Below, piece by piece: positions 150 through 57,107 of a stretch of DNA of 64,000 bases (the first letter of the stretch is position 1; each line of letters begins with the position of its first letter). The DNA is taken from contig CATLHA010000005.1 of the NCBI GenBank assembly GCA_949948745.1, forward strand, positions 12,740 through 76,739, read 5' to 3'. The notes beneath the pieces were generated by a model, which ran no database searches, had not been told where the DNA came from, and saw only the letters and a list, made by a program, of their open reading frames with translations. The translations under genes and the position numbers were made by a program. This DNA comes from an uncultured Bacillales bacterium (GTDB lineage Bacteria; Bacillota_I; Bacilli_A; RF39; UBA660).

Positions 150-1151
150 ATGTATATGTGGAAAATTGGAGATGTTGAAATTCAAAATAGAACAGTTCTA
201 GCGCCAATGGCTGGAATTGGAAATTCTAGCTTTCGTAAAATTATAAAAGAAATGGGTTGTGGACTCATTTATGCTGAAATGGTTAGTGATAAGGCACTAT
301 TTTATAACAGTAAAAAAACGATTGATATGCTTTATATGGAAGAAAGTGAACGTCCAATCACACAACAGATTTTTGGTAGCGACAAAGAATCCTTTGTTGT
401 TGCAGCCAAATATGTGTATGAACATATGCATCCAGACATTATTGATATTAATATGGGTTGTCCTGTTCCTAAAGTAGCAGTAAAATCTCAAGCAGGAGCA
501 GCACTTTTAAAAAATCCTGAAAAGATTAGGGAGATTGTCTCTAGTGTTGTAAAAGCGGTTCCTATTCCAGTTACAGTTAAAATTCGAAGTGGATGGGATC
601 ATGAACATATCAATGCTATCGAAGTGGCTAAAATTTGTGAAGAAGCTGGAGCTAAAGCTATTTGTGTTCATCCAAGAACTCGTAGTCAAGGATATTCTGG
701 TAAAGCTGACTGGTCAATTATAAAACAAGTAAAGGCAAGTGTATCTGTTCCAGTGATTGGTAATGGAGATATTACAAGTGCAGAAGATGCAAAGAGAATG
801 CTTGATGAAACTTCTTGTGATGCAGTTATGATTGGTCGTGGAGTCTTAGGTAGACCTTGGCTTATTCGTGAAATCAATCATTATTTAGAAACTGGTGAAA
901 AATTAGAAGAACCGACTGCTATAGAAAAAATAGATTTTTGCTTACGACATTTGGATAATCTTTATCAATTAAAAGATGAACATTTAGCAGTGTTAGAAAT
1001 ACGAAGTCACATTGCTTGGTATTTGAAAGGACTTTCAAAATCGAATGAAATTAAGAATAAAATATTCCTTCAAACACATATCTCTGATATAATTGATACA
1101 TTGAATGAATATAAAGAATTTCTAAAAAATGGAGGGGAAATGAATGTCTGA
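150..1151 (+). CDS. dusB: tRNA-dihydrouridine synthase (Dus family, DusB-like)
   Basis: 333 aa; N-terminal LAPMAGIGNSSFRKI and the FMN-binding pattern of Dus TIM-barrel enzymes; RBS gaggga upstream. Confidence 0.85.
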   Translation: MYMWKIGDVEIQNRTVLAPMAGIGNSSFRKIIKEMGCGLIYAEMVSDKALFYNSKKTIDMLYMEESERPITQQIFGSDKESFVVAAKYVYEHMHPDIIDINMGCPVPKVAVKSQAGAALLKNPEKIREIVSSVVKAVPIPVTVKIRSGWDHEHINAIEVAKICEEAGAKAICVHPRTRSQGYSGKADWSIIKQVKASVSVPVIGNGDITSAEDAKRMLDETSCDAVMIGRGVLGRPWLIREINHYLETGEKLEEPTAIEKIDFCLRHLDNLYQLKDEHLAVLEIRSHIAWYLKGLSKSNEIKNKIFLQTHISDIIDTLNEYKEFLKNGGEMNV

Positions 1152-1968
1152 AAAGAAAACTAGTAATAAAAAGAGTACTAAAAAATTAGAAGAAGTAGAA
1201 TCTGTAAAAATAAAAAAGACAAAATCAAAGATAGAAACGAAACATGATTTTGTTGAAGCTAGAGTAGAAAAAAGAGTATCAAGTAGAAAAAGTATAGGAG
1301 AAGAAAAACTAGAGGATGATAGTCATAAGAGAGATATAGAAGTAGAATTAGTGAAATTAGATTCAAAAGAAAGGTATCAACCAGCATTTTTCTTTCCAAG
1401 AGCTCTTGCATATATTATTGATTTTGTTATTGTTACAATTTTGTCTATGGGTGTTCTTATGATAGTTCCAGTAAATGAAAATCATGAAAAGTATATGAAA
1501 GAATATCAAAAAGTTCAAACAGATTATATAGAAAAAAAGATAGATACTTTAGAATATACGAATAAATTAAAGCCACTTATTTATGATCTTGATTATAGTA
1601 ATGTTCCTACAATGATTATACAAATTGTTATTTTAATCCTTTACTATATTGTATTTCAGTTTTATAATAAAGGACAAACTCTTGGAAAAAAATTAATGAA
1701 GATTCGAGTTATATCTTTAGATGATGAAGATGTTTCTATGAATCAACTTATTATTCGTTCCTTAATTAACCAAGCTATACTATCTAATATTTTGATAGTA
1801 GGATTTGTTTTATTTATTGGAAGAAATTTATATTATTATTCAAGTTTTGGTATTCAAGGTATTCAGGTTTTGATTACGATTATATCAATATTTATGATAA
1901 TGTATTCTAAGAAAAATAGAGGTCTTCATGACTATTTGGCTAAGACAAAAGTCATTATGACAGATTAA
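1144..1968 (+). CDS. RDD-family membrane protein with Lys-rich N-terminal extension
   Basis: 274 aa; the PRALAYIIDFVIV motif and multiple transmembrane segments resemble the RDD family; overlaps the dus stop by 8 nt (operon). Confidence 0.5.
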   Translation: MSEKKTSNKKSTKKLEEVESVKIKKTKSKIETKHDFVEARVEKRVSSRKSIGEEKLEDDSHKRDIEVELVKLDSKERYQPAFFFPRALAYIIDFVIVTILSMGVLMIVPVNENHEKYMKEYQKVQTDYIEKKIDTLEYTNKLKPLIYDLDYSNVPTMIIQIVILILYYIVFQFYNKGQTLGKKLMKIRVISLDDEDVSMNQLIIRSLINQAILSNILIVGFVLFIGRNLYYYSSFGIQGIQVLITIISIFMIMYSKKNRGLHDYLAKTKVIMTD

Positions 1969-1993
1969 ATTCAGAATTAACGGAGGTTTATAT

Positions 1994-3478
1994 ATGAGAG
2001 AATTTTCAGAACAAGAATTAGTTAGAAGAGAAAAGGTAGAAAAGATTCGCGAAGTTTGTAATCCATATCCAGAACGTTATGAGATTACACATTCTTTACG
2101 TGATGCTAGTATGCTAGAGGATGAAACAAAGGGTGTTTCCATTGCAGGACGTATTGTATTTATGCGTAAGATGGGAAAAATGAGTTTTTTAAAATTACGT
2201 GATATTGAGGGAGAACTTCAAGTATCTATTAAAGTAGATTTAGTTGGAGAAGATAAGTATGATTTCTTTAAAGGAAGTATTGATATTGGTGACTTTATTG
2301 GTGTAACTGGTGAAATTTTTACTACACATACTGGTGAAAAAACATTACGTGCTGACTCTTTTGAGTTTTTAGGAAAAGCTTTAAAGCCATTACCAGAAAA
2401 GTTTCATGGATTAACAGACTTAGAAGCATGTTACAGACAAAGATATGTTGATTTAATTATGAATCAAGATACTAGAAATCGTTTTATGATTCGTGTTAAG
2501 TTCATTCGTGAATTAAGACATTATTTAGATAATTTAGGTTACATGGAAATTGAAACACCTATTTTAAATAATAAGGCTAGTGGAGCTACAGCTCGTCCGT
2601 TTAAGTCTCATCATAATGCATTAGATTTGGATGTATTTTTAAGAATTGCGCCTGAAACTTATTTAAAAAGAGCAGTTGTTGGTGGTATTCCAAAAGTTTA
2701 TGAAGTAGCTCGTTGTTTTAGAAATGAAGGAATGGATGCTTCACACTTACAAGATTTTACTATGGTAGAAGGATATCAAGCTTATTATAATTATGAAGAT
2801 AATATGAAATTAATTCAAAATATGCTTCAAACGATTATTATGAATATTTTTGGTACTTTAAAAATTACTTTTGGAGATAAAGAAATCAATATGAGTGGTG
2901 ACTGGGGAAGAGTTACTTTCCGTGAATTATTAATTAAATATGCAAATATTGATATCGAGGTTTATAATACAAAAGAAAAATTACTTTCTAAAATTTTAGA
3001 AGAAAAAATAGAAGTAGAAAGTGAAACACCACTTGAAAATTTAGGATTTGGTAATTTAGTTGATGTTTTATATAAAAAAGTCGCTCGTCCACATATGCTT
3101 GGACCAGTATATTTAACTGAACATCCAACAAGCTTATCTCCACTTGCAAGAAGTAATGATAATCGACCTGAAGTTAGTGATAGATTCCAATTAGTTATTA
3201 ATGGAGCTGAGATTGTTAATGGATATTCAGAACTTGTTGATCCACAAGAACAAGAAAGACGTTTATTAGATCAAGCAAAGTTAAAAGCCGCTGGAGATGA
3301 AGAAGCAATGGACATGGATTATGACTATATTGGTGCCATGGAATATGGTATGCCTCCAATTTCTGGTTGGGGTATGGGAATTGACCGTATTGTTCAATTA
3401 TTAACGGGTAGTGAAAGCGTTCGTGATGTTGTTATGTTCCCATTAATGAGACCACTTGATACAAAAGAAAACGATTAA
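1994..3478 (+). CDS. lysS: lysyl-tRNA synthetase (class II)
   Basis: 494 aa; N-terminal anticodon-binding OB fold then class II core (FRNEGMD, GGIDRIVM-like motifs); typical LysS length. Confidence 0.95.
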   Translation: MREFSEQELVRREKVEKIREVCNPYPERYEITHSLRDASMLEDETKGVSIAGRIVFMRKMGKMSFLKLRDIEGELQVSIKVDLVGEDKYDFFKGSIDIGDFIGVTGEIFTTHTGEKTLRADSFEFLGKALKPLPEKFHGLTDLEACYRQRYVDLIMNQDTRNRFMIRVKFIRELRHYLDNLGYMEIETPILNNKASGATARPFKSHHNALDLDVFLRIAPETYLKRAVVGGIPKVYEVARCFRNEGMDASHLQDFTMVEGYQAYYNYEDNMKLIQNMLQTIIMNIFGTLKITFGDKEINMSGDWGRVTFRELLIKYANIDIEVYNTKEKLLSKILEEKIEVESETPLENLGFGNLVDVLYKKVARPHMLGPVYLTEHPTSLSPLARSNDNRPEVSDRFQLVINGAEIVNGYSELVDPQEQERRLLDQAKLKAAGDEEAMDMDYDYIGAMEYGMPPISGWGMGIDRIVQLLTGSESVRDVVMFPLMRPLDTKEND

Positions 3479-3489
3479 AATATAATAAA

Positions 3490-3527
3490 AAATTCTGGTA
3501 GTTATACTAGAATTTTTTTGTATGTTT
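3490..3527 (+). terminator. probable terminator after lysS
   Basis: imperfect hairpin ttctggtagt...actagaat followed by tttttttg. Confidence 0.4.
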
Positions 3528-3681
3528 AGGGATTTACTTAGTATTGGAAAAAGATAATTTATGGAAAAGTTAATTCTATTATCACAAAATCCTTTATTTA
3601 TAAAGAAATTTCATCAAACTTTCACTTAAAATTGTTGATTTTACTGTAAATGTTGATATAATTAATAATGGGAGGGTTAAT

Positions 3682-5313
3682 ATGAAAAAACACAATATTT
3701 TAAAGGTTGTACTCTTAACTATTTTAGTTGTGGTAATATGTACTTGGATTATACCTAGTGCACAATTTCAAGCAACTTTAACTGTGGGAGAAAGACTACA
3801 AGCTGGATTCTTTGATTTCTTCAGCTATCCAATGGTTGCATTACAATACTTTGGAAACGTTCTATTATATATACTAATTTGTGGTATGTTTTATGGTGTT
3901 GCTTACCGTATTCCAGCATATAAGGAATTAGTTCAAAAAATAGTAGATGGGTTCAAAGGAATGGAAGTTATTTTCCTTTCAGTTGTAATCATATTACTTT
4001 CAGTGTTAGTTTCAGTTACAGGTATCGTATTACCAATTATCTTTGTATTCCCATTTGTTATAGATGTTGTACTTAAGATGGGATATAACAGATTAACTGC
4101 TGCTACAGTTACTGTAGGTTCAGTTGTTGCTGGTATTGCAGGGACTACACTTGGAGTTGCTACTACTCAATATATGAATCAGGTTTTAGCTATTGGTTCA
4201 TTTGATGAGATGCTTTCTAAGATTGTAATTTTAGTAATCTTTATCATTCTTTTAATTGCACAAGTTGTGTTATATAGTAAGAAGACAAAAAATACTACTA
4301 TTCAAGCTGAAAAGGTAGAAGTAAAAACTGAAAAGGTTGAAGAAAAGAAAGTAGAAGTATCTAATAGGAAGGAAGAAAAAGTATCTGTTAAGAAAGATAC
4401 AAAAGTTTCTAAGAAGGAGTCATCTAGTCCTAAAAAGGGACAAAAGAAATCTTCAAGCAAAAATTCTAAACAGGAGACTAAGAAGTCTACTGGAAAAAGA
4501 GGTAGACCACCTAAGACTTCTGCTGCTATGGCAAAAGATAGTTCTGAAACATTAGTTATTTCAACTAAGAATAAGAAAAAAGCTAATATTTGGCCACTTG
4601 CAATTATTTTTGATTTAGTAATCATTATTATAGCACTTGGTATGTTTGACTGGGCTGGTTTATTTGAAATCACTTGGTTTGAAGAAGCAACAAAAGCGGT
4701 AAAAGAATACAAGGTACTTGGATTCCCAATTTTTGGTACTATTTTAGGGCAATTAAGTGCATTTGGAAAATGGAATGTAGCTATTGAAGTTCCAGTAGTT
4801 GTTATGATTGCTACTTGTGTTCTTGCATTAGTATATCGTGTAAAATTTGAGGATTTTATTGATGGAATTTGTGAAGGTGTTAGAAGATCATTTGGACCAG
4901 GAGTTGTAATGCTATTAACATATGTCGTATTAGTAGTTGTTACTTATCATCCATTCCAATTATTCATTACCAAATTCTTGTTAAATATTACTTCAGGATT
5001 CAATGTTGTAACAATGATGGTTGCTGCATTACTTGCATCAGTATTTAATGTAGATTTAATCTATGTTTCTCAAAATGTATTACCTTATATTGAAACTGTT
5101 ATTACTAATACTGAATTATATCCATTAATCGGGGTTATTTTCCAATCAATTTATGGATTAGTATGTTTAGTAGCACCAACAAGTTTTATTTTAATGGGTA
5201 CATTATGTTATTTAAATGTTTCTTACAAACAATGGTTAAAGCATATTTGGAAATTATTCCTAGCATTACTTGCTGTTTTAGCAGTAGTATTCTTAATCAT
5301 TTTAGCTTTATAG
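3682..5313 (+). CDS. polytopic membrane protein (YfcC/AbgT-like transporter family?) with a ~110-aa Lys-rich cytoplasmic insert
   Basis: 543 aa, at least 10 predicted transmembrane segments; N-terminal CTWIIPSAQF resembles YfcC-family starts; the insert KVEVKTEKVEEKK...GKRGRPPK carries an AT-hook-like RGRP core. Confidence 0.45.
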   Translation: MKKHNILKVVLLTILVVVICTWIIPSAQFQATLTVGERLQAGFFDFFSYPMVALQYFGNVLLYILICGMFYGVAYRIPAYKELVQKIVDGFKGMEVIFLSVVIILLSVLVSVTGIVLPIIFVFPFVIDVVLKMGYNRLTAATVTVGSVVAGIAGTTLGVATTQYMNQVLAIGSFDEMLSKIVILVIFIILLIAQVVLYSKKTKNTTIQAEKVEVKTEKVEEKKVEVSNRKEEKVSVKKDTKVSKKESSSPKKGQKKSSSKNSKQETKKSTGKRGRPPKTSAAMAKDSSETLVISTKNKKKANIWPLAIIFDLVIIIIALGMFDWAGLFEITWFEEATKAVKEYKVLGFPIFGTILGQLSAFGKWNVAIEVPVVVMIATCVLALVYRVKFEDFIDGICEGVRRSFGPGVVMLLTYVVLVVVTYHPFQLFITKFLLNITSGFNVVTMMVAALLASVFNVDLIYVSQNVLPYIETVITNTELYPLIGVIFQSIYGLVCLVAPTSFILMGTLCYLNVSYKQWLKHIWKLFLALLAVLAVVFLIILAL

Positions 5314-5435
5314 GAAATTAATTATTTAAGAGGACTATTCTTATGAGTAGTCTTTTTTCTGTTTTTTCTTTTTTAATCGTTTAAAAAAATTCTAAATATA
5401 GCATAATAATCATAGAATGGAATAGGAGGATTATT

Positions 5436-7736
5436 ATGTTTTCTAAATTTAGTGAAGAAGCCCAGAAAATTTTACTTGGTGCAAAAAGGGAGATGCAAAA
5501 ATTAAAGCATCCTTATGTGAGTAGTGAACATTTGGTTTTATCTATTTTAAGAAATAATAATGATTTAGCAAATCGATTAAAGGAATTTCAAATTACATAT
5601 GATTCATTTTATCAACAAATTGTAGAACAAATAGGAATAGGAAAAGAGGAGAATCATTGGTTTTTATTTACACCTCTTTTAAAGAGAGTAATAGAAACCT
5701 CTATCTTACTTTCGAGGGACATGAATAGTAATGAAGTAACTAGTGATCAATTATTTTTAGCTGTTTTAGAAGAAGGTGAGGGAGTAGCAATTCGAATTCT
5801 AAAACAAATGGATGTTGATATCAATGATTTACAAGAGTATTTTTCTAATAGAATCGTAGTGAAAAAGAAAAAGGGAGGAAAAAAATTGCTTGTAGAAGAA
5901 TTTGGAATTGATTTAACTAAAGAAGCTTCTCTTAATAAATTAGATCCTGTTGTTGGTAGAGAACAAGAAATAGTTCGATTAATGGAAATATTATGTAGAA
6001 GAAACAAAAATAACCCATTGTTAATTGGAGATGCTGGAGTAGGAAAAACAGCTTTGGTTGAAGAACTTGCTAGATTGATTGTTCAAAATAAAGTTCCAGA
6101 TAAACTTAAAAATAAAAGAATTATTTCTGTATCTATTGCATCCTTAGTTTCAGGAACGAAATATCGTGGGGAATTTGAAGAACGTGTTACCAAGATGATT
6201 AAAGAGATTGAATCCAATAATGATGTTTTACTTTTTATTGATGAAATACATACTTTGATGGGTGCTGGCGGAGCAGAGGGTGCGATAGATGCTGCTAATA
6301 TATTTAAACCTGCTCTAGCACGTGGAAAAATTCGTTTAATAGGGGCAACTACTACGGACGAATATAAGCAAACGATAGAAAAAGATCGTGCGATGGACAG
6401 AAGATTTCAAACAGTTTTTGTATATGAACCGAATTCTTCAGAAGTTTATAATATTTTAGAAAAACTTCGACCAATTTACGAATCATTTCACAATGTCAAA
6501 ATTAATGATTCTGAATTAAAGCTTATTATTAAATTATCTGATAAATATATTTATGATAGAAAACAACCAGATAAGGCGATTGATATTTTAGATGAAGTTT
6601 GTTCTAAGGTTTCTTTAATTCGTCATAAGAGTTCTACTAAACTTGATTTATATCAATCACAATTAAACTTGGTAAAAGAGGAAAAAAATAAATACATTAT
6701 GAAGCAAGATTTTGAAAATGCAACAAAGCTTAAATATCAAGAAAAGGATTTATTAACTAAAATTAATGAGATTGAATTAAAACATAAGGCTAAGAAAAAC
6801 GTTCATGTTATTCATGAAAATGATATTGCGAATGTTATTTCTGAGAAAACTAAGATACCAGTTTATGAAATCAATAGTAGTTGTTCAAAATATATGGAAA
6901 AATTAGAAAAAGGACTTCATAAAAAAATTATAGGTCAAGAAGAAGCAATTAATGAGCTTGTGAAAGCAACAAAAAGAATTAAATTAGGATATAAGGATAG
7001 TGATAAACCATATTCTTATTTATTTGTAGGTCCAACTGGTGTAGGAAAAACAAAACTTGCTTTAGAATATGCACATTTTCTATTTGGGGAAGGCAAACTA
7101 ATTCGATTTGATATGAGTGAGTATAGAGATAGTTCTTCTATTAATAAAATTATTGGATCTTCTCCTGGATATGTTGGATATGATGATGGTAAAAATAAAC
7201 TAGAAGAAATTAGAAAAAGTCCACATTCTATTATTTTACTTGATGAAATAGAAAAGGCACATCCGTCTGTTTTAAATTTATTTTTGCAAATATTAGATGA
7301 GGGTAAAATTACTGATTCTAAGGGAAATATGGTTCATTTTAATCATCATATCATTATCATGACTTCTAATTTAGGCTTTCATAATGAGTCTGTTGGCTTT
7401 ATCGAAGAAGTTAGTAAGAATGATAGTAAGTTAAAAGAATTTTTATCATTAGAGTTATTAAATCGTATACAAAAAACTATTTATTTTAGAAAACTAGATG
7501 AAAATAATATTCGATCAATTATTAAAATTAAATTAGATTATGTCAAAAAGAAATTTAGAGAGAGAAATATTAAGGTTCATATTAGTGAAGGTATTATTGA
7601 TAAAATGATTCAAAATACAAGATATTTGGAATTTGGCGCTAGGAAAATTGATCAGGTTATCGAAGATGAAATTGATGACTATGTAATTGATCATATATTA
7701 AGTGGAAAAACGGAAATTTATGTAAACAATAATTAA
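5436..7736 (+). CDS. clpC: Clp ATPase, ClpC-like (two AAA+ modules)
   Basis: 766 aa; Clp_N repeats at the N-terminus; Walker A GDAGVGKTA and second GPTGVGKT; the ClpB-type middle domain is short. Confidence 0.85.
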   Translation: MFSKFSEEAQKILLGAKREMQKLKHPYVSSEHLVLSILRNNNDLANRLKEFQITYDSFYQQIVEQIGIGKEENHWFLFTPLLKRVIETSILLSRDMNSNEVTSDQLFLAVLEEGEGVAIRILKQMDVDINDLQEYFSNRIVVKKKKGGKKLLVEEFGIDLTKEASLNKLDPVVGREQEIVRLMEILCRRNKNNPLLIGDAGVGKTALVEELARLIVQNKVPDKLKNKRIISVSIASLVSGTKYRGEFEERVTKMIKEIESNNDVLLFIDEIHTLMGAGGAEGAIDAANIFKPALARGKIRLIGATTTDEYKQTIEKDRAMDRRFQTVFVYEPNSSEVYNILEKLRPIYESFHNVKINDSELKLIIKLSDKYIYDRKQPDKAIDILDEVCSKVSLIRHKSSTKLDLYQSQLNLVKEEKNKYIMKQDFENATKLKYQEKDLLTKINEIELKHKAKKNVHVIHENDIANVISEKTKIPVYEINSSCSKYMEKLEKGLHKKIIGQEEAINELVKATKRIKLGYKDSDKPYSYLFVGPTGVGKTKLALEYAHFLFGEGKLIRFDMSEYRDSSSINKIIGSSPGYVGYDDGKNKLEEIRKSPHSIILLDEIEKAHPSVLNLFLQILDEGKITDSKGNMVHFNHHIIIMTSNLGFHNESVGFIEEVSKNDSKLKEFLSLELLNRIQKTIYFRKLDENNIRSIIKIKLDYVKKKFRERNIKVHISEGIIDKMIQNTRYLEFGARKIDQVIEDEIDDYVIDHILSGKTEIYVNNN

Positions 7737-7836
7737 TTAGGGACTTAGGTCTCTTTTTTCTTTGTTTTCAAGTGATAATAGATATGGTATAATAATATTG
7801 ATTTGAGATAATAGAATATAATGAAAAGGTGATTTT

Positions 7837-9234
7837 ATGAAATTATATAATACATTGACAAAACAGGTAGAAGAATTTGTTCCTCATGAAGAGGGAGTAG
7901 TTCGTATGTATACTTGTGGACCTACCGTATATCATTTTGCTCATATTGGAAATCTTCGTACTTATATTTTTGAAGATATTTTAGAAAAAAGTCTTCGTTA
8001 TTTAGGATATGATGTAAAAAGAGTAATGAATATCACAGATGTTGGTCATTTAACTAGTGATGGAGATACTGGTGAAGATAAGATGGAAAAGGGTGCTCTT
8101 AGAGAAGGTAAAACAGTTTATGAAATAGCACAGTTTTATACAGATGCATTCTTTAATGATTGTGAAGCTTTAAATATCAAGAAACCTAGTATTATTGAAC
8201 CTGCTAGTCATCATATTGATACTTATATTAAAATGATTACTAAAATGCTAGAAGATGGATATGCTTATATTTCTTCTGGAAATGTTTATTTTGATGTTAC
8301 AAAGGCAAAGGACTATTATCAATTATCTGGTAGAAACAAAGATGATTTGATGGTTGGTGTAAGGGATACTGTAGAAGAAGATAAAGCCAAGAAAAATCCT
8401 GCAGACTTTGTACTTTGGTTTACTGATAGTAAGTTTAAAAATCAAGATATGAGATGGGATTCTCCTTGGGGAATCGGATATCCAGGTTGGCATATTGAAT
8501 GTAGTGGAATTAGTGGTAAGTATTTGGGAGAGTATTTAGATATCCATTGTGGTGGTGTAGATAATGTTTTTCCACATCATACTAATGAAATAGCACAGAG
8601 TGAGGCTTATTTTGGTCATAAATGGTGTAATTACTGGGTACATGGAGAACATTTAAATGATAAAACTGGGAAGATGAGTAAATCTAAGGGTGAGTTTTTA
8701 ACTGTTTCTCTATTAAAGGAAAAGGGGTATGATCCACTAGTATATCGTTACTTTTGCTTAGGAAGTCATTATCGCAAAGTATTAACTTTCTCTTATGAAG
8801 CATTAGATCAAGTAAATCAAGCTTATCAAAAACTTAGAAAGAAAATTCAAAAACTTGATCGTACGCCTAACTTAAAAGAGGGGAAAATCGATTTTTACCA
8901 AAATGCATTTAAAGAAGCCATTTCTAATGATTTAAATACATCTAGTATGTTAACTTTAGTTTATGATGTATTAAAGGATGAAGAACTTACTGATTTTACA
9001 AAACTTTATTTAATTGAAGATTTTGATAAGGTTTTATCTTTGAATTTAATTATTGAAGAAGAGGAAGAAACCAATGAAGAATTAGAAAGCTATATTTTAA
9101 AACGAATTGAGGATAGAAAAAATGCAAAGCAAAATAAAAATTTTGAGGAAGCGGATTCAATTCGTAATGAATTATTAGAAAAAGGAATTCGTTTAATTGA
9201 TAGTAGAGAAGGTACTACTTACGAAATCTTATAA
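7837..9234 (+). CDS. cysS: cysteinyl-tRNA synthetase
   Basis: 465 aa; HIGN (HIGH-type) motif in [17 protein letters not shown] and KMSKS present. Confidence 0.95.
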
Positions 9235-9246
9235 TGGAGGAATATT

Positions 9247-9945
9247 ATGGGTTATTATGGTTATGATATCATTGGATATGGATTAATTCTACTTGGTACT
9301 ATTATTACATTAGTTGCGCAATACTTTGTTAATAGTAAATACAATAAATATAGCAAAGTAAAGAATGAAAAAGGCTTATCAGGACAAGAAGTTGCACGTA
9401 TGATTCTTGATAAAAACGGATTGGAAGATGTCTATGTTACTGAAGTAAAAGGTACACTTACTGATCATTATGATCCAACTAGAAAAGTGGTTCGTCTTTC
9501 TACTGAAATATTTCATGGAGAAACTGTTGCTGCTTGTAGTGTAGCTTCTCATGAAGTGGGTCATGCAGTGCAAGATAAGGAAGGATATTTCTTTATTAAG
9601 GTACGTGGTGCTATTTTTCCATTTGTTAGTTTTGCATCTAAATTTGGTTATATTGCAATCATGATTGGACTTATATTTAATATGATAGATTTGGCTTGGG
9701 GTGGAATCGGACTATTACTTGTTATATTAATTTTCCAACTAATTACACTTCCAGTTGAATTTGATGCTTCTAGAAGAGCTCTCATTTATTTAGATGAAAT
9801 GAAAATTTTAAAGAAGAAGGAACATGAAGGAAGCGAAGAAATGTTGAAGGCTGCTGCTATGACTTATGTTGCTGGGCTAGCTACGACATTATTAGAAATT
9901 TTGAGATTTGCACTTATTTTAATAGGAAGAAATCGTGATGAATAA
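9247..9945 (+). CDS. YugP-like membrane zinc metallopeptidase (Zn_peptidase_2 family)
   Basis: 232 aa; HEVGHAVQ zincin motif between transmembrane segments; family architecture recalled from B. subtilis YugP. Confidence 0.7.
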   Translation: MGYYGYDIIGYGLILLGTIITLVAQYFVNSKYNKYSKVKNEKGLSGQEVARMILDKNGLEDVYVTEVKGTLTDHYDPTRKVVRLSTEIFHGETVAACSVASHEVGHAVQDKEGYFFIKVRGAIFPFVSFASKFGYIAIMIGLIFNMIDLAWGGIGLLLVILIFQLITLPVEFDASRRALIYLDEMKILKKKEHEGSEEMLKAAAMTYVAGLATTLLEILRFALILIGRNRDE

Positions 9946-9953
9946 TTTTATAG

Positions 9954-9990
9954 AAAAGTAGAAATATATGACTATATTTTTACTTTTTTA
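9954..9990 (+). terminator. rho-independent terminator
   Basis: 15-bp arms aaaagtagaaatata / tatatttttactttt (1 mismatch), loop tgac, then a T-run. Confidence 0.55.
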
Positions 9991-10111
9991 TTTGAAAATA
10001 TTTCTTGAAGAGATAATGTAAAGAAGGAATTTTAAGACTCTTTTTTATTGTCTATTGTTTTTTTTATATGATATACTTTTAATATAGAATAATAGTTTTT
10101 AATGTAATGGA

Positions 10112-10519
10112 GTGTTTGTTATGTTGTTTTTAATTTTTTTGATAGTTGTCATTATTTGCGTTATAAGAATAAGAAATTACTCTAGTAAAAAAATTGACAA
10201 TGATAGTAAAGTAAAAGCAAATCTTAAACTACCATTTGGGAATGTGACTATTTCTAATAAAGAAGATGATGTTTCCAGCGATAAGTTGCCTGACTTTACT
10301 CATGATGAACGTGAGAAGATGATAAAAGGTGATGTTAAGATAATAACTAATGTTAATAAAAAGGTAACAAAATATGTAAATGGTGAGAAAGTATCTGTAG
10401 AAGAGACTAATTCTATAGATAATGTTTCCAAAAAATCAATTAATAAATGTCCTAATTGTGGAGCTAGTATTGATTTAAGTCAAGAAGAATGTTCTTATTG
10501 TGGTACTAAGATTAATTGA
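10112..10519 (+). CDS. hypothetical N-terminally membrane-anchored protein with C-terminal zinc ribbon
   Basis: 135 aa; N-terminal transmembrane helix; C-terminal CPNCGAS...CSYCG four-Cys ribbon. Confidence 0.5.
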   Translation: MFVMLFLIFLIVVIICVIRIRNYSSKKIDNDSKVKANLKLPFGNVTISNKEDDVSSDKLPDFTHDEREKMIKGDVKIITNVNKKVTKYVNGEKVSVEETNSIDNVSKKSINKCPNCGASIDLSQEECSYCGTKIN

Positions 10520-48796: not shown

Positions 48797-49237
48797 ATGG
48801 AAATATTGAATCGTGTAGCGAGACATGACTACTTTATTGAAGATGAATATGAATGTGGTATTGTTTTAACAGGTACTGAAATAAAATCTATTCGTGATGG
48901 AAAGGCAAATATTAAAGATAGTTATGGAATTATAAAAAATGGCGAAGCTTTTCTTTTAAATATGTTTATTAGTCATTATAAAGAAGGAAATATTTTTAAT
49001 CATAATGAAACTAGAACAAGAAAATTGTTACTTCATAAAGCAGAAATCAGAAAATTAGGAGATAAGATTAAATTAGAAGGGTATACATTAATCCCTTTAA
49101 AGGTTTATTTTGTTAAAAATAAAGCGAAAGTTTTGCTTGGATTATGTAAGGGTAAAAAGACTTTTGATAAAAGGGAAACTATAAAAGAGAGAGATATCAA
49201 AAGACAATTAGAAAAAGTGAATAAAAATCAGTATTAG
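48797..49237 (+). CDS. smpB: SsrA-binding protein
   Basis: 146 aa; SmpB family (IAxNKKARHDYFIEDxxEAGIxLxGTEVKS). Confidence 0.95.
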   Translation: MEILNRVARHDYFIEDEYECGIVLTGTEIKSIRDGKANIKDSYGIIKNGEAFLLNMFISHYKEGNIFNHNETRTRKLLLHKAEIRKLGDKIKLEGYTLIPLKVYFVKNKAKVLLGLCKGKKTFDKRETIKERDIKRQLEKVNKNQY

Positions 49238-49948: not shown

Positions 49949-50301
49949 TGGGGCTGTCATGGTTTCGACAGGATTAGTGGAACAAGAGTGGCAAGTAGAT
50001 GGCAATCTTAAAATGCGTCAGTTAAATATAACTGGAAACAATTATCAAATGGCTTTCGCTGCTTAATAAAGCATATAGCGAAGCGCTTCTTTAAAAGTCA
50101 TACCTGTGGACTTTTTTAGAGGCTCGATTTTTACAGGTTATATTACTATGACGTCTATAGTAGTGATGAATTTTATAGACTGGCTATATCAACATTCGTT
50201 AACTAGTTTTTGATATAGTGAGATTGTTTAGTTAACTAAACTTGTAGATATTCTTGAGGATCTAGTTTTGGACAGGAGTTCGATTCTCCTCAGCTCCACC
50301 A
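49949..50301 (+). ncRNA. ssrA: tmRNA (SsrA), 353 nt; encoded tag (A)GNNYQMAFAA
   Basis: 5' GGGGCUG...UUCGACAGG acceptor/T-arm pairing with 3' GGACAGGAGUUCGAUUCUCCUCAGCUCCACCA; the resume context UUAAAUAUAACU-GGA matches B. subtilis ssrA as recalled; tag ORF gga...gct gct taa taa at 50034-50066. Confidence 0.9.
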
Positions 50302-51368: not shown

Positions 51369-51689
51369 ATGGAAAAAACAATTACACAGATTCAAAAAGA
51401 TGTTGATGATTGGGCACAGCAATTCGAAAAACCTTATTTTAGTCCACTTTCCATGGTTGCTACAATGACTGAGGAATGTGGAGAAGTAGCTAGAGTGATG
51501 AATCATTTATATGGTGATAAAAAGAAGAAAGATGGAGAAACTATGATAGACTTAGAAGAGGAGCTTGGAGATTTATTATTTACTATTATTTGTATCGCAA
51601 ATGATCAGAACATTTCTTTAGCGAAAGCACATGAACGTAAATTAGAAAAGATTTATGGTAGAGATAATTATCGTTTTAATAGAAAATAA
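51369..51689 (+). CDS. MazG-like nucleoside triphosphate pyrophosphohydrolase (small all-alpha NTP-PPase)
   Basis: 106 aa; EECGEVARVMNH and EEELGDLLFTII motifs (EExxE...D metal-binding pattern). Confidence 0.7.
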   Translation: MEKTITQIQKDVDDWAQQFEKPYFSPLSMVATMTEECGEVARVMNHLYGDKKKKDGETMIDLEEELGDLLFTIICIANDQNISLAKAHERKLEKIYGRDNYRFNRK

Positions 51690-51735: not shown

Positions 51736-52335
51736 ATGGAGAAATTAAAAGATAGGCTTGATTATTTAAATGGACTAATCGATAAGTATCAGAAACAACT
51801 AAAAAAGAAAGAACAAAGACCTTCTGGGTGCTATTCATGGGAAACAGAGGATGAATCGATAGTACAATTGAGAGAAAAAATATATCAATTATTTGATGAG
51901 GTATCTAAAATAGAAAAAACTTTAGTAATAGCGGATAAGGAGCCTATTATTTGTAGTGAACGAATAGATTTATATAAAACCGATCAAAATCCTAAGGGAT
52001 ATTATATAGTGTGTTTATCTGGTACTAAGACTATTATAGGTGAGGTTGGATGTAATAACGAAAATAATAATATTCATTATGTAATTGATCAAGAATATCA
52101 AAATAATGGATATGGATTTCAGGCAGTAGTTACTATGTTAAATTATTTAGTTTTATCTGGTATTGAAAATATTGAGATTCTAATAAAAAAAGAAAATGCC
52201 ATATCAATCAAAATGGCTGAGAAACTTAAAAATATATTTCCAAACTTTAGTGAGAATATAATGGATGATTACCTTATGTACCATTTTTGTTTAAGGAAGA
52301 AAAAGAACAAGGAAGATAATATTAGTTATAAATAG
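51736..52335 (+). CDS. GNAT-family N-acetyltransferase with N-terminal coiled-coil
   Basis: 199 aa; acetyl-CoA-binding motif QEYQNNGYGFQAV (Q/R-x-x-G-x-G/A). Confidence 0.55.
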   Translation: MEKLKDRLDYLNGLIDKYQKQLKKKEQRPSGCYSWETEDESIVQLREKIYQLFDEVSKIEKTLVIADKEPIICSERIDLYKTDQNPKGYYIVCLSGTKTIIGEVGCNNENNNIHYVIDQEYQNNGYGFQAVVTMLNYLVLSGIENIEILIKKENAISIKMAEKLKNIFPNFSENIMDDYLMYHFCLRKKKNKEDNISYK

Positions 52336-52412: not shown

Positions 52413-54206
52413 GTGATAATTGTGATTAGAGATAATATAATTATAATACGAGATTTTTTTAAATTAGTTAAGGGAAATAAAAAATGGATATTTCTTTTGT
52501 TTTTTGGTTCTATAATGGCACATTTATCTAGTTTACTAATACCAATTTTTACTTCTAATATTATATATGAAGTCACAAATCATAATGTTGATGCGGCATA
52601 TATAAATATTGGGATGTTGGCATTGGTCTATATAGTATATAATTTGTTTTGGTATTTGAATTATGTTTCTTATTCTCATAATTTTAAATATAGTTATAAA
52701 AATTTAAGAGAAAAAGTTGTAGATAAAGTCTTTACTTATGATACTGATTTTTCAGATAAAATATCTAAAGGTACAATTTTAAACACCGTGAATACAGATA
52801 TTTCAAATTTATCTGAGATGATAGATAACGTTTGTGAAATTTTAGTTGTTTTTGTAAAAATTATAGTTATGATTATTGTCTTTTTAAAAACGGATATATA
52901 TATCGGGGTACTAGTTTTGTTGTTGGAATATTTATATTTAAAATCATTTGACTATTGTAATATTAAAAGTACAAAATATTTGAGAGGTCAACAGAAATAT
53001 AGAGATAAATTAACAGATAATTTGTCTCAGATTTTAAATGGATTAAGTGAGATAAAAGTTTTTAATATTTATGATAAAATTAAAAATAATTTTTATATTA
53101 TTGCTAATAAATGGGCAGAACAGTATATGTTAAAAAGAAGATATGTTAATATTAGAGCTAGCTTGTTGCCGTTTATTATCCATTTTGGAAAAATAATTTT
53201 ATATTTTATACTAACTTCATTTGTACTTAGTGGAAAATATGAAATAAATCTTTTAGTTTTACTAATTACTTATTTTGAAAATATTATGACTAATACTAAA
53301 GAATTGATGGGATTTTCAAGGCAAATTAGGGAATGGTCTATTTCTATTAAAAGAATTAATACTATTTTAAATTATTCAAGCAAGCAACAAATCACTTTTG
53401 GTATGAATGAAAATGATTATATAGATGGTTTGGTAGAATTTAAGGACGTAAGTTTTTGTTACAAGACTAAAAATAGAGGTAATATTAGAAATATAAGTTT
53501 TACTGCAGAACCTAATGAAATAACTGCTTTGGTTGGACATAGTGGTAGTGGAAAAACAACTATTATTAATTTAATACTTAGAAAATATAAACTAGATAGT
53601 GGAAAAATCTTAATTGATAATGAAAATATATATGATTATTCTAAAAGTATTTATGCTACAAACGTAGTTGGGGTAAACCAATCTCCATTTATATTTAATA
53701 TGAGTATTAGAAAAAATTTAAGTTTAATTGATTCAAATATTGATAATCAAATTGAAGCTTGTAAAAGAGTTGGAATTCATGACTACATTATGAGTTTGCC
53801 TAAGGGATATCATACTATTTTAACTGAAAATGCTACTAATTTTTCAGGAGGACAAAGACAATTGTTGGCAATTGCTAGAACATTATTATCAAAAGCCGAA
53901 ATATTAATATTTGATGAAGTAACAAGTTCACTTGATACATTGCTAGTAGAAAAAATTAAGGAAATTTTTGAAAATTTAAAATTAGATCATACAATTATTT
54001 TAATAACTCATAAAAAAGATGTAATGAAAATCGCAGATAAAATTATTGTTTTAAATAAGGGAATGATAGTTGGTCAAGGTAATCATAAGGAACTTATGAA
54101 AAGCAATGAATATTATATAGACTTACAAACAAATAATTATTCTAGTTCTCATAAAAAGACATTTGAAAATATTATTGTGGAAGATACTGTTTTAGAAAGA
54201 AAATAA
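52413..54206 (+). CDS. ABC exporter, fused permease + ATPase, bacteriocin/peptide-exporter-like but without an N-terminal peptidase domain
   Basis: 597 aa; 6 transmembrane segments; Walker A GHSGSGKTT, signature FSGGQRQLL, Walker B ILIFDEVTS; GTG start uncertain (52413 or 52422). Confidence 0.85.
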   Translation: MIIVIRDNIIIIRDFFKLVKGNKKWIFLLFFGSIMAHLSSLLIPIFTSNIIYEVTNHNVDAAYINIGMLALVYIVYNLFWYLNYVSYSHNFKYSYKNLREKVVDKVFTYDTDFSDKISKGTILNTVNTDISNLSEMIDNVCEILVVFVKIIVMIIVFLKTDIYIGVLVLLLEYLYLKSFDYCNIKSTKYLRGQQKYRDKLTDNLSQILNGLSEIKVFNIYDKIKNNFYIIANKWAEQYMLKRRYVNIRASLLPFIIHFGKIILYFILTSFVLSGKYEINLLVLLITYFENIMTNTKELMGFSRQIREWSISIKRINTILNYSSKQQITFGMNENDYIDGLVEFKDVSFCYKTKNRGNIRNISFTAEPNEITALVGHSGSGKTTIINLILRKYKLDSGKILIDNENIYDYSKSIYATNVVGVNQSPFIFNMSIRKNLSLIDSNIDNQIEACKRVGIHDYIMSLPKGYHTILTENATNFSGGQRQLLAIARTLLSKAEILIFDEVTSSLDTLLVEKIKEIFENLKLDHTIILITHKKDVMKIADKIIVLNKGMIVGQGNHKELMKSNEYYIDLQTNNYSSSHKKTFENIIVEDTVLERK

Positions 54207-54297: not shown

Positions 54298-55077
54298 ATG
54301 TGGGGTGCTATTATAGGAGACTTGGCTGGTTCTATATATGAATTCGGTCAAATAAAGAAAGTATCTAATATTTTGATTGATGAAGTTATTATGGAAGATA
54401 GCTTTTATAGTGATGATACAATCTTGACAGTTTCTATTTTAGATGCCTTACTAAATGGTGGAGATTATGGATTTTTTCTAAAAAAATATGGTTGCCTTTA
54501 TCAAGACTATAAACCTGATTTTGAGCCATACTTTCAAAAAACTTTTTCTCCTAGCTTTTTAAAATGGGCAAGTGGAGATTTTGTAGGAGTTAGTACTGGG
54601 AACGGGGCAATGATGAGAATTTCTTCCATTGGGTATCTCTTTGATACTGTTGCAGATATAGAAAAAAATGCATATTTGGCTACCGTTCCTTCTCATAACT
54701 CTAAAGAAGCTATCCAATGTGCGACTTTAGTGGCACTGATTATTTACTTTGCTAGGAAGAATTATTCAAAGGAAGAAATAATTAAAAATTTAGATTTAAG
54801 ATATGCATATCATCCATTTCAGAAGTTTAATAGTACTTGTTATGATACAATAGATAATTGTCTTTATGCACTTTTTAGTTCTAATAGTTTTGAAGATTCT
54901 ATAAGAAAAGTTATTTCTTATGGAGGAGATACTGATACAAATGCTTGTATTGTTGGGTCTATGGCAGAAGCATTTTATGGGGTTCCTTTAGAACTAATAG
55001 AAGCTTGTAGAAATAAAATACCAGAGGAATTTACTAAAATTATAGATTTAGGCTATTCTAAAATGAAGAGATTTTAG
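54298..55077 (+). CDS. ADP-ribosylglycohydrolase family protein (ARH/DraG-like)
   Basis: 259 aa; N-terminal GAIIGDLAGS and C-terminal GGDTDTNACIVGSMAEAFYG, the two metal-binding signature blocks of the ARH fold. Confidence 0.8.
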   Translation: MWGAIIGDLAGSIYEFGQIKKVSNILIDEVIMEDSFYSDDTILTVSILDALLNGGDYGFFLKKYGCLYQDYKPDFEPYFQKTFSPSFLKWASGDFVGVSTGNGAMMRISSIGYLFDTVADIEKNAYLATVPSHNSKEAIQCATLVALIIYFARKNYSKEEIIKNLDLRYAYHPFQKFNSTCYDTIDNCLYALFSSNSFEDSIRKVISYGGDTDTNACIVGSMAEAFYGVPLELIEACRNKIPEEFTKIIDLGYSKMKRF

Positions 55078-55110
55078 ATTTATATATAATAAGAAAAGGA
55101 GAAACATATT

Positions 55111-55914
55111 ATGAAGTTAACAGTATTAGAAGATAATAATACTTATATTGATATGTATTATTTAGGAGAACCAGCAGTTAGCTATTATATCGAGGATGGA
55201 AACAATAGAATTTTGTTTGATGTTGGATATTCAGATGCGTTTATGATAAATGCTAAAAAGATAGGAATTGATTTAGATAAAGTGAATAAGCTAGTAATAT
55301 CTCATGGACACGATGACCATACTGGTGGATTGAAATATTTCTTTAATAAAAAAAGAAATATTGAATTGATTTCTCATCCAGAAAGTTTTAACTATAAAGA
55401 AGATGCTACTGGACTTTTTATTGGGAGTTCTTTAACAAAAGAACAATTATATGAAGTTAGTAATTTAAAATTATCTAAGGAGCCTATTCAAATAAGTGAT
55501 AATATTATTTATTTAGGAGAGATTCCTATTACTAATGATTTTGAACCCCGTTATGCGATTGGTAAGAGTATTGTTGATGATAAAAAGGTCGAAGATATGA
55601 TTGAAGAAGATTCTGCAATTGTTTATAAGAGTGATCAAGGGTTATTTGTTATTACTGGATGTTCTCATAGTGGAATTTGTAATATTATTGAGTATGCTAA
55701 AAAGGTTTGTCATGAGGAAAGAATCTGCGGTGTGATTGGTGGATTTCATCTATTTGAAGTGAATAATCGATTAGAAAAAACGATTGAATATTTCAAGAAA
55801 AATGATATTAAATTGTTGTATCCATGTCATTGTGTTTCATTAAAAGCTAAAATAGAAATGGGAAAACAATTAGATATACGTGAAGTTGGAGTGGGACTTG
55901 AAATTAATTTATAA
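55111..55914 (+). CDS. MBL-fold metallo-hydrolase
   Basis: 267 aa; HGHDDHTGG (HxHxDH) plus downstream His/Asp/Cys ligands. Confidence 0.75.
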   Translation: MKLTVLEDNNTYIDMYYLGEPAVSYYIEDGNNRILFDVGYSDAFMINAKKIGIDLDKVNKLVISHGHDDHTGGLKYFFNKKRNIELISHPESFNYKEDATGLFIGSSLTKEQLYEVSNLKLSKEPIQISDNIIYLGEIPITNDFEPRYAIGKSIVDDKKVEDMIEEDSAIVYKSDQGLFVITGCSHSGICNIIEYAKKVCHEERICGVIGGFHLFEVNNRLEKTIEYFKKNDIKLLYPCHCVSLKAKIEMGKQLDIREVGVGLEINL

Positions 55915-55952
55915 GGAGAATTTGATAGACTTACAATGATAGGAGAATTGAT

Positions 55953-56531
55953 ATGAGTGATGATATTTTGTACCATATTCATAGAACTGGTGATATGGAT
56001 GATTTATGGTATGTTGGAAATGAAATTATTGTAGATGATAATTTTCAAAGTCAATTTTATGTTCAATTATTGAAACAGGAGTTTCCTTTAGTTCAAAGAT
56101 ATGGAGATTATGATATAGATGATTTGATATCTACGATGGAAGAGATGAAATCTTTAAATTTTATGAAATCTAATGTTGATTCTTTATTTCATAAATTACT
56201 TTATTGTTGTTATTCTTTAAGAAGAGAAAGAGCATTAGAAGAAGGAAGAAAAATATTTTCTTCTAATTGTCCTTCTAGAATGCATTCTATATTTTTAACA
56301 GGTATGGATGATTTATCCTATTGGGAAAGTTATGTTGGTAATAGGTCTTTTCAAAGATTCTCTTTGAATTGTTTTGGCAATTTATTTGTCAGTTCTGATT
56401 CTTTTTTTCCACAATATACATTATCATTTGATGATCAAGTAGAACAATCTAGAGTCTATTGGATTCCAGAGATGGAAAAAGCAAAACATAAGGAAATATT
56501 ATTTCAGGGTAAAGCTCAAATCATAGCATAA
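55953..56531 (+). CDS. hypothetical 192-aa protein; weak resemblance to DarT-type (DUF4433) ADP-ribosyltransferases
   Basis: N-terminal ILYHIHRTGD recalls the DarT YHITH NAD-binding block; C-terminal KHKEILFQ recalls the AEFLV catalytic-Glu block; the similarity is from memory and not statistically tested. Confidence 0.3.
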   Translation: MSDDILYHIHRTGDMDDLWYVGNEIIVDDNFQSQFYVQLLKQEFPLVQRYGDYDIDDLISTMEEMKSLNFMKSNVDSLFHKLLYCCYSLRRERALEEGRKIFSSNCPSRMHSIFLTGMDDLSYWESYVGNRSFQRFSLNCFGNLFVSSDSFFPQYTLSFDDQVEQSRVYWIPEMEKAKHKEILFQGKAQIIA

Positions 56532-56532
56532 G

Positions 56533-56561
56533 AAAACCTCATAAAAATTTTATGAGGTTTT
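56533..56561. terminator. bidirectional terminator between convergent genes
   Basis: perfect palindrome aaaacctcataaaa A ttttatgaggtttt overlapping both stop codons. Confidence 0.65.
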
Positions 56562-57107
56562 AATTTTCTTAATCAAATAGAATCCTGCACCATTTTCTTT
56601 TTTGTGAACAGAAATTGATTTAGATAATCTTTCTATATCTATATTTTCATAATCTCTTTTGGCAGAAGGGTCTAAAATAGTTATAACATCATCTTTTATG
56701 CTTTCAAATAAAATCATATGTCCCCAGTCTTCCTGTGGATCATTATAGAGTGTTGCTGCGTGACAACAGATTACTATATCATTTTCTTTATTTTCTATAA
56801 GAAATTTTTTTATATCATTTTTCTCAGTAATATAGTGATATTCTTCCTTTAAATTTATATTATTTTTTTTAAAGAAATTATTTATGGAATATTCTTCTTT
56901 TTGTATTTGAGTTCCAAATCCTGCATCTGGTTTTTCTCCAATTATTGCGTTTGGATATATTTTACTATATTCTTGTGGGACAATTAGTCCAAGATTACAT
57001 GCAATATCTATTTGTCCTTGATTAGAAATCTTATTTCTATTTAAAATCATTTCGATACATGAGCCAACACAACAGTATGGTTTTTGTACAATTTTTTTAT
57101 ATTTCAA
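56550..57107 (-). CDS. stand-alone papain-fold cysteine peptidase, C39-like
   Basis: 185 aa; Cys block YCCVGSCIEMIL (compare CGxAxLxMIL), His block DWGHMILF, then DP; order and spacing are as in the bacteriocin-processing peptidase C39 domain. Confidence 0.5.
   Translation of the reverse strand: MKYKKIVQKPYCCVGSCIEMILNRNKISNQGQIDIACNLGLIVPQEYSKIYPNAIIGEKPDAGFGTQIQKEEYSINNFFKKNNINLKEEYHYITEKNDIKKFLIENKENDIVICCHAATLYNDPQEDWGHMILFESIKDDVITILDPSAKRDYENIDIERLSKSISVHKKENGAGFYLIKKIKTS

Follow-up and report, generated by a model that had tools for sequence, protein, structure and literature searches.

Proteins of the DUF2441 family are placed by Pfam in the ADP-ribosyltransferase (ART) clan (PMC7955679), and BC2332 from B. 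cereus (PDB 2AUA) makes up a SCOP family of its own, d.166.1.6, inside the ADP-ribosylation superfamily (PMC3000352). A local site in BC2332 was found by ProFunc to resemble the catalytic sites of diphtheria toxin, exotoxin A and cholix (PMC3024214). DUF2441/BC2332 is among the few ART-clan families which have a crystal structure but for which neither a substrate nor a biological role is known, and our literature search found no biochemical data for any DUF2441 protein.

We examined a block of three genes within a window of 64,000 nucleotides, the window being the whole stretch of DNA that was analysed. According to the original prediction, a 192-aa protein encoded in this block resembled the toxin DarT and formed a reversible ADP-ribosylation toxin/immunity module with a neighbouring ADP-ribosylglycohydrolase (ARH) and a metallo-beta-lactamase-fold (MBL) hydrolase. 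We found that the 192-aa protein is a new member of a family which is structurally defined and functionally an orphan; a new toxin/immunity architecture is not supported. The features discussed below are:

49950-50301, + strand: tmRNA (ssrA), identified with ARAGORN, approximately 4 kb upstream of the ARH gene; context only.
51369-51689, + strand: MazG-type NTP pyrophosphohydrolase (PF03819, 1.2e−14), upstream of the block and conserved in relatives.
51736-52335: GNAT gene between the MazG and ARH genes, window-specific.
52413-54206: ABC gene between the MazG and ARH genes, window-specific.
54298-55077, + strand: ARH, compact form, 259 aa (PF03747, 3.5e−28), with SDDT at residues 38-41 and GGDTDT at residues 209-214.
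55111-55914, + strand: MBL hydrolase, TM1679-like, 267 aa (PF00753, 8.5e−15), with HGHDDH at residues 65-70.
55953-56531, + strand: DUF2441/BC2332-like ADP-ribosyltransferase-fold protein, 192 aa (PF10386), with the candidate catalytic residues His8/His10 (strand 6-11), Arg91/Glu92/Arg99/Arg109, Tyr169 and Glu181 (start of strand 180-190).
56533-56561, no strand: terminator-like hairpin (stem of 13 bp) where the DUF2441 gene and the 185-aa gene converge.
56550-57107, − strand: 185-aa protein without a family match, convergent with DUF2441; all three close relatives retain this pair.

The three open reading frames of the block were confirmed at the predicted coordinates and strand, as were the intergenic gaps of 33 nt between ARH and MBL and 38 nt between MBL and DUF2441. 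These gaps had been taken to indicate a tight operon. However, the window is approximately 92% coding, its + strand carries 48 of the 54 genes and gaps of ≤ 40 nt make up 40% of all same-strand gaps; since tight gaps are the norm in this window, the close spacing of the three genes cannot be used as a sign of an operon. The genes are co-directional, no terminator lies between them and the hairpin lies directly 3′ of DUF2441. Co-transcription of the three genes is plausible, and the hairpin is likely to be the 3′ end of the transcript. A promoter scan gave results similar to those for shuffled sequence (87 predicted vs 77 expected). It had also been suggested that the operon was driven from the GNAT and ABC genes upstream, but both of these genes are missing in relatives and thus lie outside any conserved operon.

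The block had further been described as sitting in an island beside ssrA. The tmRNA is indeed nearby and the gene content of the region is variable, with many insertions and deletions downstream of ssrA and differences between close relatives. However, the 27-nt 3′ end of ssrA has no second copy in the window (allowing up to 3 mismatches), the genes scanned from 50.4 to 58.6 kb include no integrase, and the GC content of the region is not distinct from that of the remaining window, with no compositional break. Both flanks are kept in relatives: smpB and an HD gene upstream, and genes for a 232-aa protein, a GNAT protein and an EamA protein downstream. Indel-prone chromosomal DNA is the better description of this stretch, which is not demonstrably a mobile island.

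The 192-aa protein, which had been thought to have no other assignment, passes the Pfam threshold for DUF2441 (PF10386: 28.5 bits, cut-off 25, residues 35-170). This domain is present in 26 of 26 close homologues and was matched by 104 of 105 wider relatives. A profile of 23 homologues matched the sequence of 2AUA at 8.4e−9, and a profile of 105 sequences matched it over its full length at 6.5e−21. An exhaustive profile search gave 766 cluster representatives, of which most are approximately 200 aa long, stand alone and cover the whole profile; the domains fused to longer members were uninformative and include one YscJ/FliF fusion that is probably a gene-call artefact. A profile scan found 6 metagenome loci and, in the viral collection, no loci.

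The predicted ART fold of the 192-aa protein was borne out by its structural neighbours. The best of these by far was BC2332 (2AUA, score 15.2), followed by Arr (5.9), CC0527/DUF952 (5.1), Tpt1/KptA (5.0), PARP4 (4.8), TreX (4.8), DarT1 (4.6) and other DarT entries (3.6-4.1). Nearly all of the neighbours ranking below 2AUA are ART-fold proteins, and Foldseek concurs. Residues 34-102 form a long helical insert, which is not typical of this fold. The 192-aa protein has an ART fold and belongs to the DUF2441/BC2332 family, and its link to characterised ARTs exists at the level of the fold only.

We compared 105 diverse members of the DUF2441 family, with a mean column identity of 24%, to find conserved residues. 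E92, R99, R109, Y169, E181 and G186 are invariant, and H8, R91, E96, S108, W124 and W170 are conserved in ≥ 90% of members; all of these are present in the window protein. The blocks ILYHIHRTGD and KHKEILFQ, in which DarT motifs had been seen, do stand out above chance, but as signatures of DUF2441: they hold His8 and the invariant Glu181. The protein does not specifically resemble DarT. Both of these residues are conserved and located in strands, with YHIH at residues 7-10 (LYHIHR lying in strand 6-11) and KEILFQG at residues 180-186, opening strand 180-190. In an ART of the H...E type, the first block would plausibly supply the His that contacts NAD and the second the catalytic Glu. We also considered an R-S-E layout (R109, S147/S148, Q162-x-E164), which was good in an alignment of 23 sequences; this was rejected as S147, S148, D149 and E164 are unconserved in the 105 members.

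We think it probable that the 192-aa gene encodes a cytoplasmic, standalone enzyme of the BC2332-like/DUF2441 ART type, which uses NAD+ and modifies a non-lethal acceptor, and that the ARH and MBL genes are independent of it and adjacent by chance in one clade. In such an enzyme NAD+ would be bound in the ART cleft through the conserved His of strand 1 (His8/His10), and the nicotinamide-ribose bond would be activated by the invariant Glu181, with which the last strand begins. The Arg cluster (Arg91, Arg99 and Arg109) may hold either the pyrophosphate or an acceptor that is acidic or phosphorylated, and ADP-ribose would then be moved to an acceptor whose modification is not lethal to the cell. 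Because of the fold neighbours, a small molecule or the end of a nucleic acid, as for Arr and Tpt1, would be a likelier acceptor than genomic DNA.

It is unlikely, in our view, that the DUF2441 protein keeps the ART fold without being a transferase, acting as an NAD+ glycohydrolase or as a binder of NAD or ADP-ribose, or being a pseudoenzyme. The canonical middle motif of ARTs (Tyr or Ser-Thr-Ser) is unassignable here, with no family-wide conservation of the SSD147-149 and QxE162-164 positions among the 105 members. The family also has no sequence-level similarity to a characterised ART, BC2332 has Ala in place of His8 in the profile alignment, and the helical insert is likewise unusual for the fold. 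Set against this is the invariance of Glu181, Arg99, Arg109, Glu92 and Tyr169 across sequences which share only about 24% mean identity, which points to a conserved active site, together with the ProFunc match between the 2AUA site and the catalytic site of diphtheria toxin (PMC3024214).

The two neighbouring enzymes were called with confidence from their sequences. The ARH scores 99.5 bits against PF03747 (cut-off 26.2), which upholds the original assignment; the signature GAIIGDLAGS is present at residues 3-12, and the SDDT and GGDTDT metal-ligand motifs are intact and invariant across 120 homologues. Its nearest solved structures are ARH3 (1e−11) and MJ1187. The MBL hydrolase scores 55.7 bits against PF00753 (cut-off 22.7) and its closest PDB entries, 3H3E (TM1679; 2e−29) and 2P4Z (9e−27), are both uncharacterised; a weak Anti-Pycsar_Apyc1 flag was found for its orthologues. 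Both are predicted to be catalytically intact hydrolases which are widespread on their own, the ARH having more than 2,000 homologues at E ≤ 1e−10 and more than 100 clusters at 60-65% identity. We rejected the ARH as an orthologue of Tri1 (NF041672: 32.9 bits, cut-off 490) or DraG (TIGR02662: 43.7 bits, cut-off 337), as its scores are far under both cut-offs. PADLOC gave no match for the ARH or the DUF2441 protein.

We then asked how often an ARH gene lies within 5-6 kb of DUF2441, counting about 21 independent DUF2441 lineages and searching for ARH by tblastn, by an ARH profile HMM (120 homologues; six-frame open reading frames) and in precomputed Pfam tables. An ARH was found near DUF2441 in 3 of the approximately 21 lineages. 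These are ≥ 73% identical and belong to one clade that is syntenic around smpB-ssrA, so that by shared ancestry and synteny they represent a single evolutionary event. None of the approximately 18 other lineages (24-56% identity) had an ARH within 5-6 kb. The role of eraser or antidote which had been proposed for the ARH is thus not borne out, as the linkage is confined to one clade.

Within this clade the arrangement is not fixed. L001-L004 (73% identical) carry smpB, HD, further genes, PNP, MazG, ARH, MBL, DUF2441 and a 182/183-aa gene on the minus strand, and are syntenic with the window except that they lack its GNAT and ABC genes. The 185-aa gene of the window has an orthologue of 76-77% identity at the same position in L001-L004, and a 185-aa gene is found at the equivalent place in L037 (76% identical). 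L037 has a 184-aa gene and an SDR gene between MazG and ARH, and its MBL and DUF2441 genes are separated by an inserted 304-aa gene. Outside the clade, L018 shows an independent case of an MBL gene beside DUF2441; here the order of the two genes is reversed, and comparison with the syntenic L017 shows this to be an insertion.

Starting from the ARH gave a similar picture. Six ARH-anchored loci from 3 lineages (orthologues of 60-63% identity) contained no DUF2441 and no MBL gene, and three such orthologues, on long contigs, had the housekeeping neighbours ScpA/B, ThyA, YbaK-like, HD and QueH. An unannotated 192-aa open reading frame near an ARH orthologue in L027 proved not to be a relative of DUF2441. 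By a rough estimate, which assumes approximately 1,200 genes and one ARH per genome, an ARH would lie by chance within two genes of DUF2441 in about 0.3% of genomes, giving about a 7% chance of at least one case among 21 lineages. The adjacency is a mild coincidence, worth noting as a weak lead; it is an arrangement particular to one genus-level clade and not a conserved toxin/immunity or writer/eraser module.

Elsewhere, DUF2441 genes are in most cases solitary, with housekeeping genes around them, and are found now and then in a phage or a defence island. Their neighbours include L31, a SAM methyltransferase with a pseudouridine synthase, a serpin, a cyclophilin, generic NUDIX/HAD hydrolases and many unknowns. 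A theme of nucleotide or NAD house-cleaning among the neighbours (MazG, two NUDIX genes, HAD and NUDIX-PHP) was considered and discarded, as all of these are far under any specific NCBIfam cut-off and can be called only generic hydrolases. The 192-aa protein matches phrog_9842 (function unknown), a viral structure library gave three uncharacterised phage matches, and Cronobacter phage phiES15 carries a standalone DUF2441 cargo gene between its Rz spanin and small terminase subunit genes. One distant member lies downstream of a type I restriction R subunit and an OLD/GajA-like ATPase, and another downstream of a PDC-S36/NOV_C gene. None of these phage or defence examples has an eraser gene adjacent to it. 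In view of these observations, a role in conflict may exist for parts of the DUF2441 family.

We consider it quite unlikely that the three genes form a real, clade-specific reversible module, in which DUF2441 would write ADP-ribose onto an endogenous or invader target, the ARH would remove it, and the MBL hydrolase would process a phosphodiester product or provide a second layer of reversal. Several observations are consistent with such a module: the shared direction of the genes with no internal terminator and a hairpin right after DUF2441, the retention of the trio in three related lineages, the intact catalytic motifs of the ARH, the independent DUF2441-MBL adjacency in L018, and the occurrence of some distant DUF2441 genes in defence islands or phage moron slots. 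However, approximately 18 of 21 lineages and every ARH-anchored locus sampled lack the linkage, a further gene separates MBL from DUF2441 in the closest relative, and the three linked lineages count as one event. The distance of the ARH from Tri1 and DraG and the absence of PADLOC matches also argue against it. It is more doubtful still that this gut-Bacilli clade has recruited a DUF2441 ART beside an ARH and an MBL hydrolase of phosphodiesterase type to give a working writer/eraser cycle; if true, this would for the first time offer a way into the function of an ART family whose structure is known and which has been biochemically uncharacterised since 2005.

It is extremely improbable that the 192-aa protein is a toxin which ADP-ribosylates ssDNA as DarT does, with the ARH-fold enzyme serving as antidote instead of a DarG macrodomain: the protein has no match at E ≤ 1 to the DarT/DUF4433 HMM (PF14487) in Pfam or to DarT in PADLOC, none of its 105 relatives matches the DarT HMM at E ≤ 0.01, DarT structures rank below Arr, DUF952, Tpt1, PARP4 and TreX, and no macrodomain is found among its neighbours (ARH, MBL, the 185-aa protein and the GNATs). 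Most members of the family, moreover, lie singly between housekeeping genes and have no candidate antidote beside them, a setting that does not fit easily with a toxin that damages DNA.

The family assignment replaces a speculative, novel DarT-ARH toxin-antitoxin pair with an ordinary and still unexplained enzyme, and the neighbouring ARH should not be taken as the antidote of the DUF2441 protein. The clade-specific trio, together with the phage and defence occurrences, offers a modest lead for de-orphaning DUF2441 and is not evidence of a new system.

With DarT/DarG (PF14487 and a macrodomain) the 192-aa protein shares an ART fold, an N-terminal strand bearing His and a C-terminal strand bearing Glu. 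Tpt1/KptA and DUF952 (CC0527) have no sequence-level match to it. Arr (PDB 2HW2, 9IAF, 9IBA) lacks the 70-residue helical insert, and profile-profile comparison with verified Arr sequences (9IBA, 2HW2) using hhalign gave a probability of 0.3%, which is not significant. As in Tre1/Tri1 and DraT/DraG, the gene for an ART-fold protein has a co-oriented ARH gene within 1 kb of it; in contrast to those systems, the pairing here occurs in one clade only and has no secretion-system or nitrogenase context. BC2332 is about 16-21% identical to the 192-aa protein and has FYAYH where the latter has LYHIH (His8 to Ala), while the SSD147-149 block, compared with BC2332, is particular to the subfamily of the 192-aa protein.

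The block holding the ADP-ribosylglycohydrolase (ARH), metallo-beta-lactamase-fold hydrolase (MBL) and DUF2441 genes is an indel hotspot. Variable stretches were found in the window and in two close syntenic relatives, L001 and L037:

51736-54206, variable stretch in the window
7400-10330, variable stretch in L001
1094-2407 and 4071-4985, variable stretches in L037

The interval between the MazG gene and ARH contains a GNAT gene and an ABC exporter in the window, an unknown 184-aa gene and an SDR gene in L037, and is empty in L001. In L037 an unknown 304-aa gene also separates MBL from DUF2441. Relatives L001-L004 carry a cassette after the gene for a 185-aa protein, consisting of ThyA, a cytidylyltransferase-dCMP-deaminase fusion and DHFR, which is absent from the window.

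This 185-aa gene and DUF2441 are convergent, with a common hairpin (56533-56561), and the pair is present in 3/3 close relatives (76-77% identity):

56550-57107, minus strand, 185-aa protein gene

The protein had no match in Pfam, NCBIfam, PADLOC or PHROGs. Judging by its N-terminal Cys-rich motif PYCCVGSC and a WGH further along, it may be a peptidase of the papain or C39 type.

On the MazG side of the block lie the tmRNA gene and a 262-aa ORF directly 3' of it:

49950-50301, tmRNA (ssrA), tag peptide GNLKMRQLNITGNNYQMAFAA
50378-51166, plus strand, 262-aa ORF

In the window ssrA is directly preceded by smpB (48797-49237) and an HD-domain gene, an arrangement shared with the relatives. The 262-aa ORF contains the zincin motif HEYLH (residues 99-103) and has a weak MPTase-PolyVal match (E 0.008); the syntenic relatives lack it and have a purine/uridine phosphorylase-family gene in the same place. 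Elsewhere in the window core genes were seen (rpoB/rpoC-sized and EF-G/EF-Tu-sized ORFs). The source genome has a GC content of ~28% and its relatives are uncultured gut Bacilli.

Copies of MBL lie at these positions:

55111-55914, window
5180-5983, L001
3225-4028, L037

In precomputed results MBL orthologues weakly match the phage cyclic-nucleotide phosphodiesterase family Anti-Pycsar_Apyc1 (PF23023), and a local Pfam scan of the window MBL did not recover this family at E<=1. In the Bacilli locus L018 (2665-4028), an MBL gene 62% identical to that of the window is inserted directly after DUF2441, and the syntenic locus L017 (5977-7462), also from Bacilli, is without the insertion. L018 is a second, independent DUF2441-MBL adjacency, with the opposite gene order.

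DUF2441 members have varied neighbours at other loci. Downstream of DUF2441 in L007 (3163-5613) come a 193-aa gene of unknown family, two genes for NUDIX hydrolases and a small gene resembling P-loop kinases, the last with a faint AAA_28 match. By NCBIfam scores these neighbours are all generic, so they did not establish any NAD- or ADP-ribose-specific link. Two distant members occur in defence-like neighbourhoods:

1135-6621, L024, uncultured Bacilli CAKOXC010000003.1; member directly 3' of a type I restriction R subunit (PADLOC 1.4e-277) and an OLD/GajA-like ATPase
4977-6633, L023, Clostridium sp. CAG:433; member downstream of a NOV_C/PDC-S36 protein

Phages supply further examples. Uncharacterised structural matches come from Gordonia phage JuJu and Achromobacter phage Motura, and Cronobacter phage phiES15 has a DUF2441-domain gene:

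4719-5327 of L044 (NC_018454.1 15878-16486), gp27

In this temperate phage gp27 is a lone gene flanked by the Rz spanin genes on one side and the small terminase subunit on the other, a classic location for a moron.
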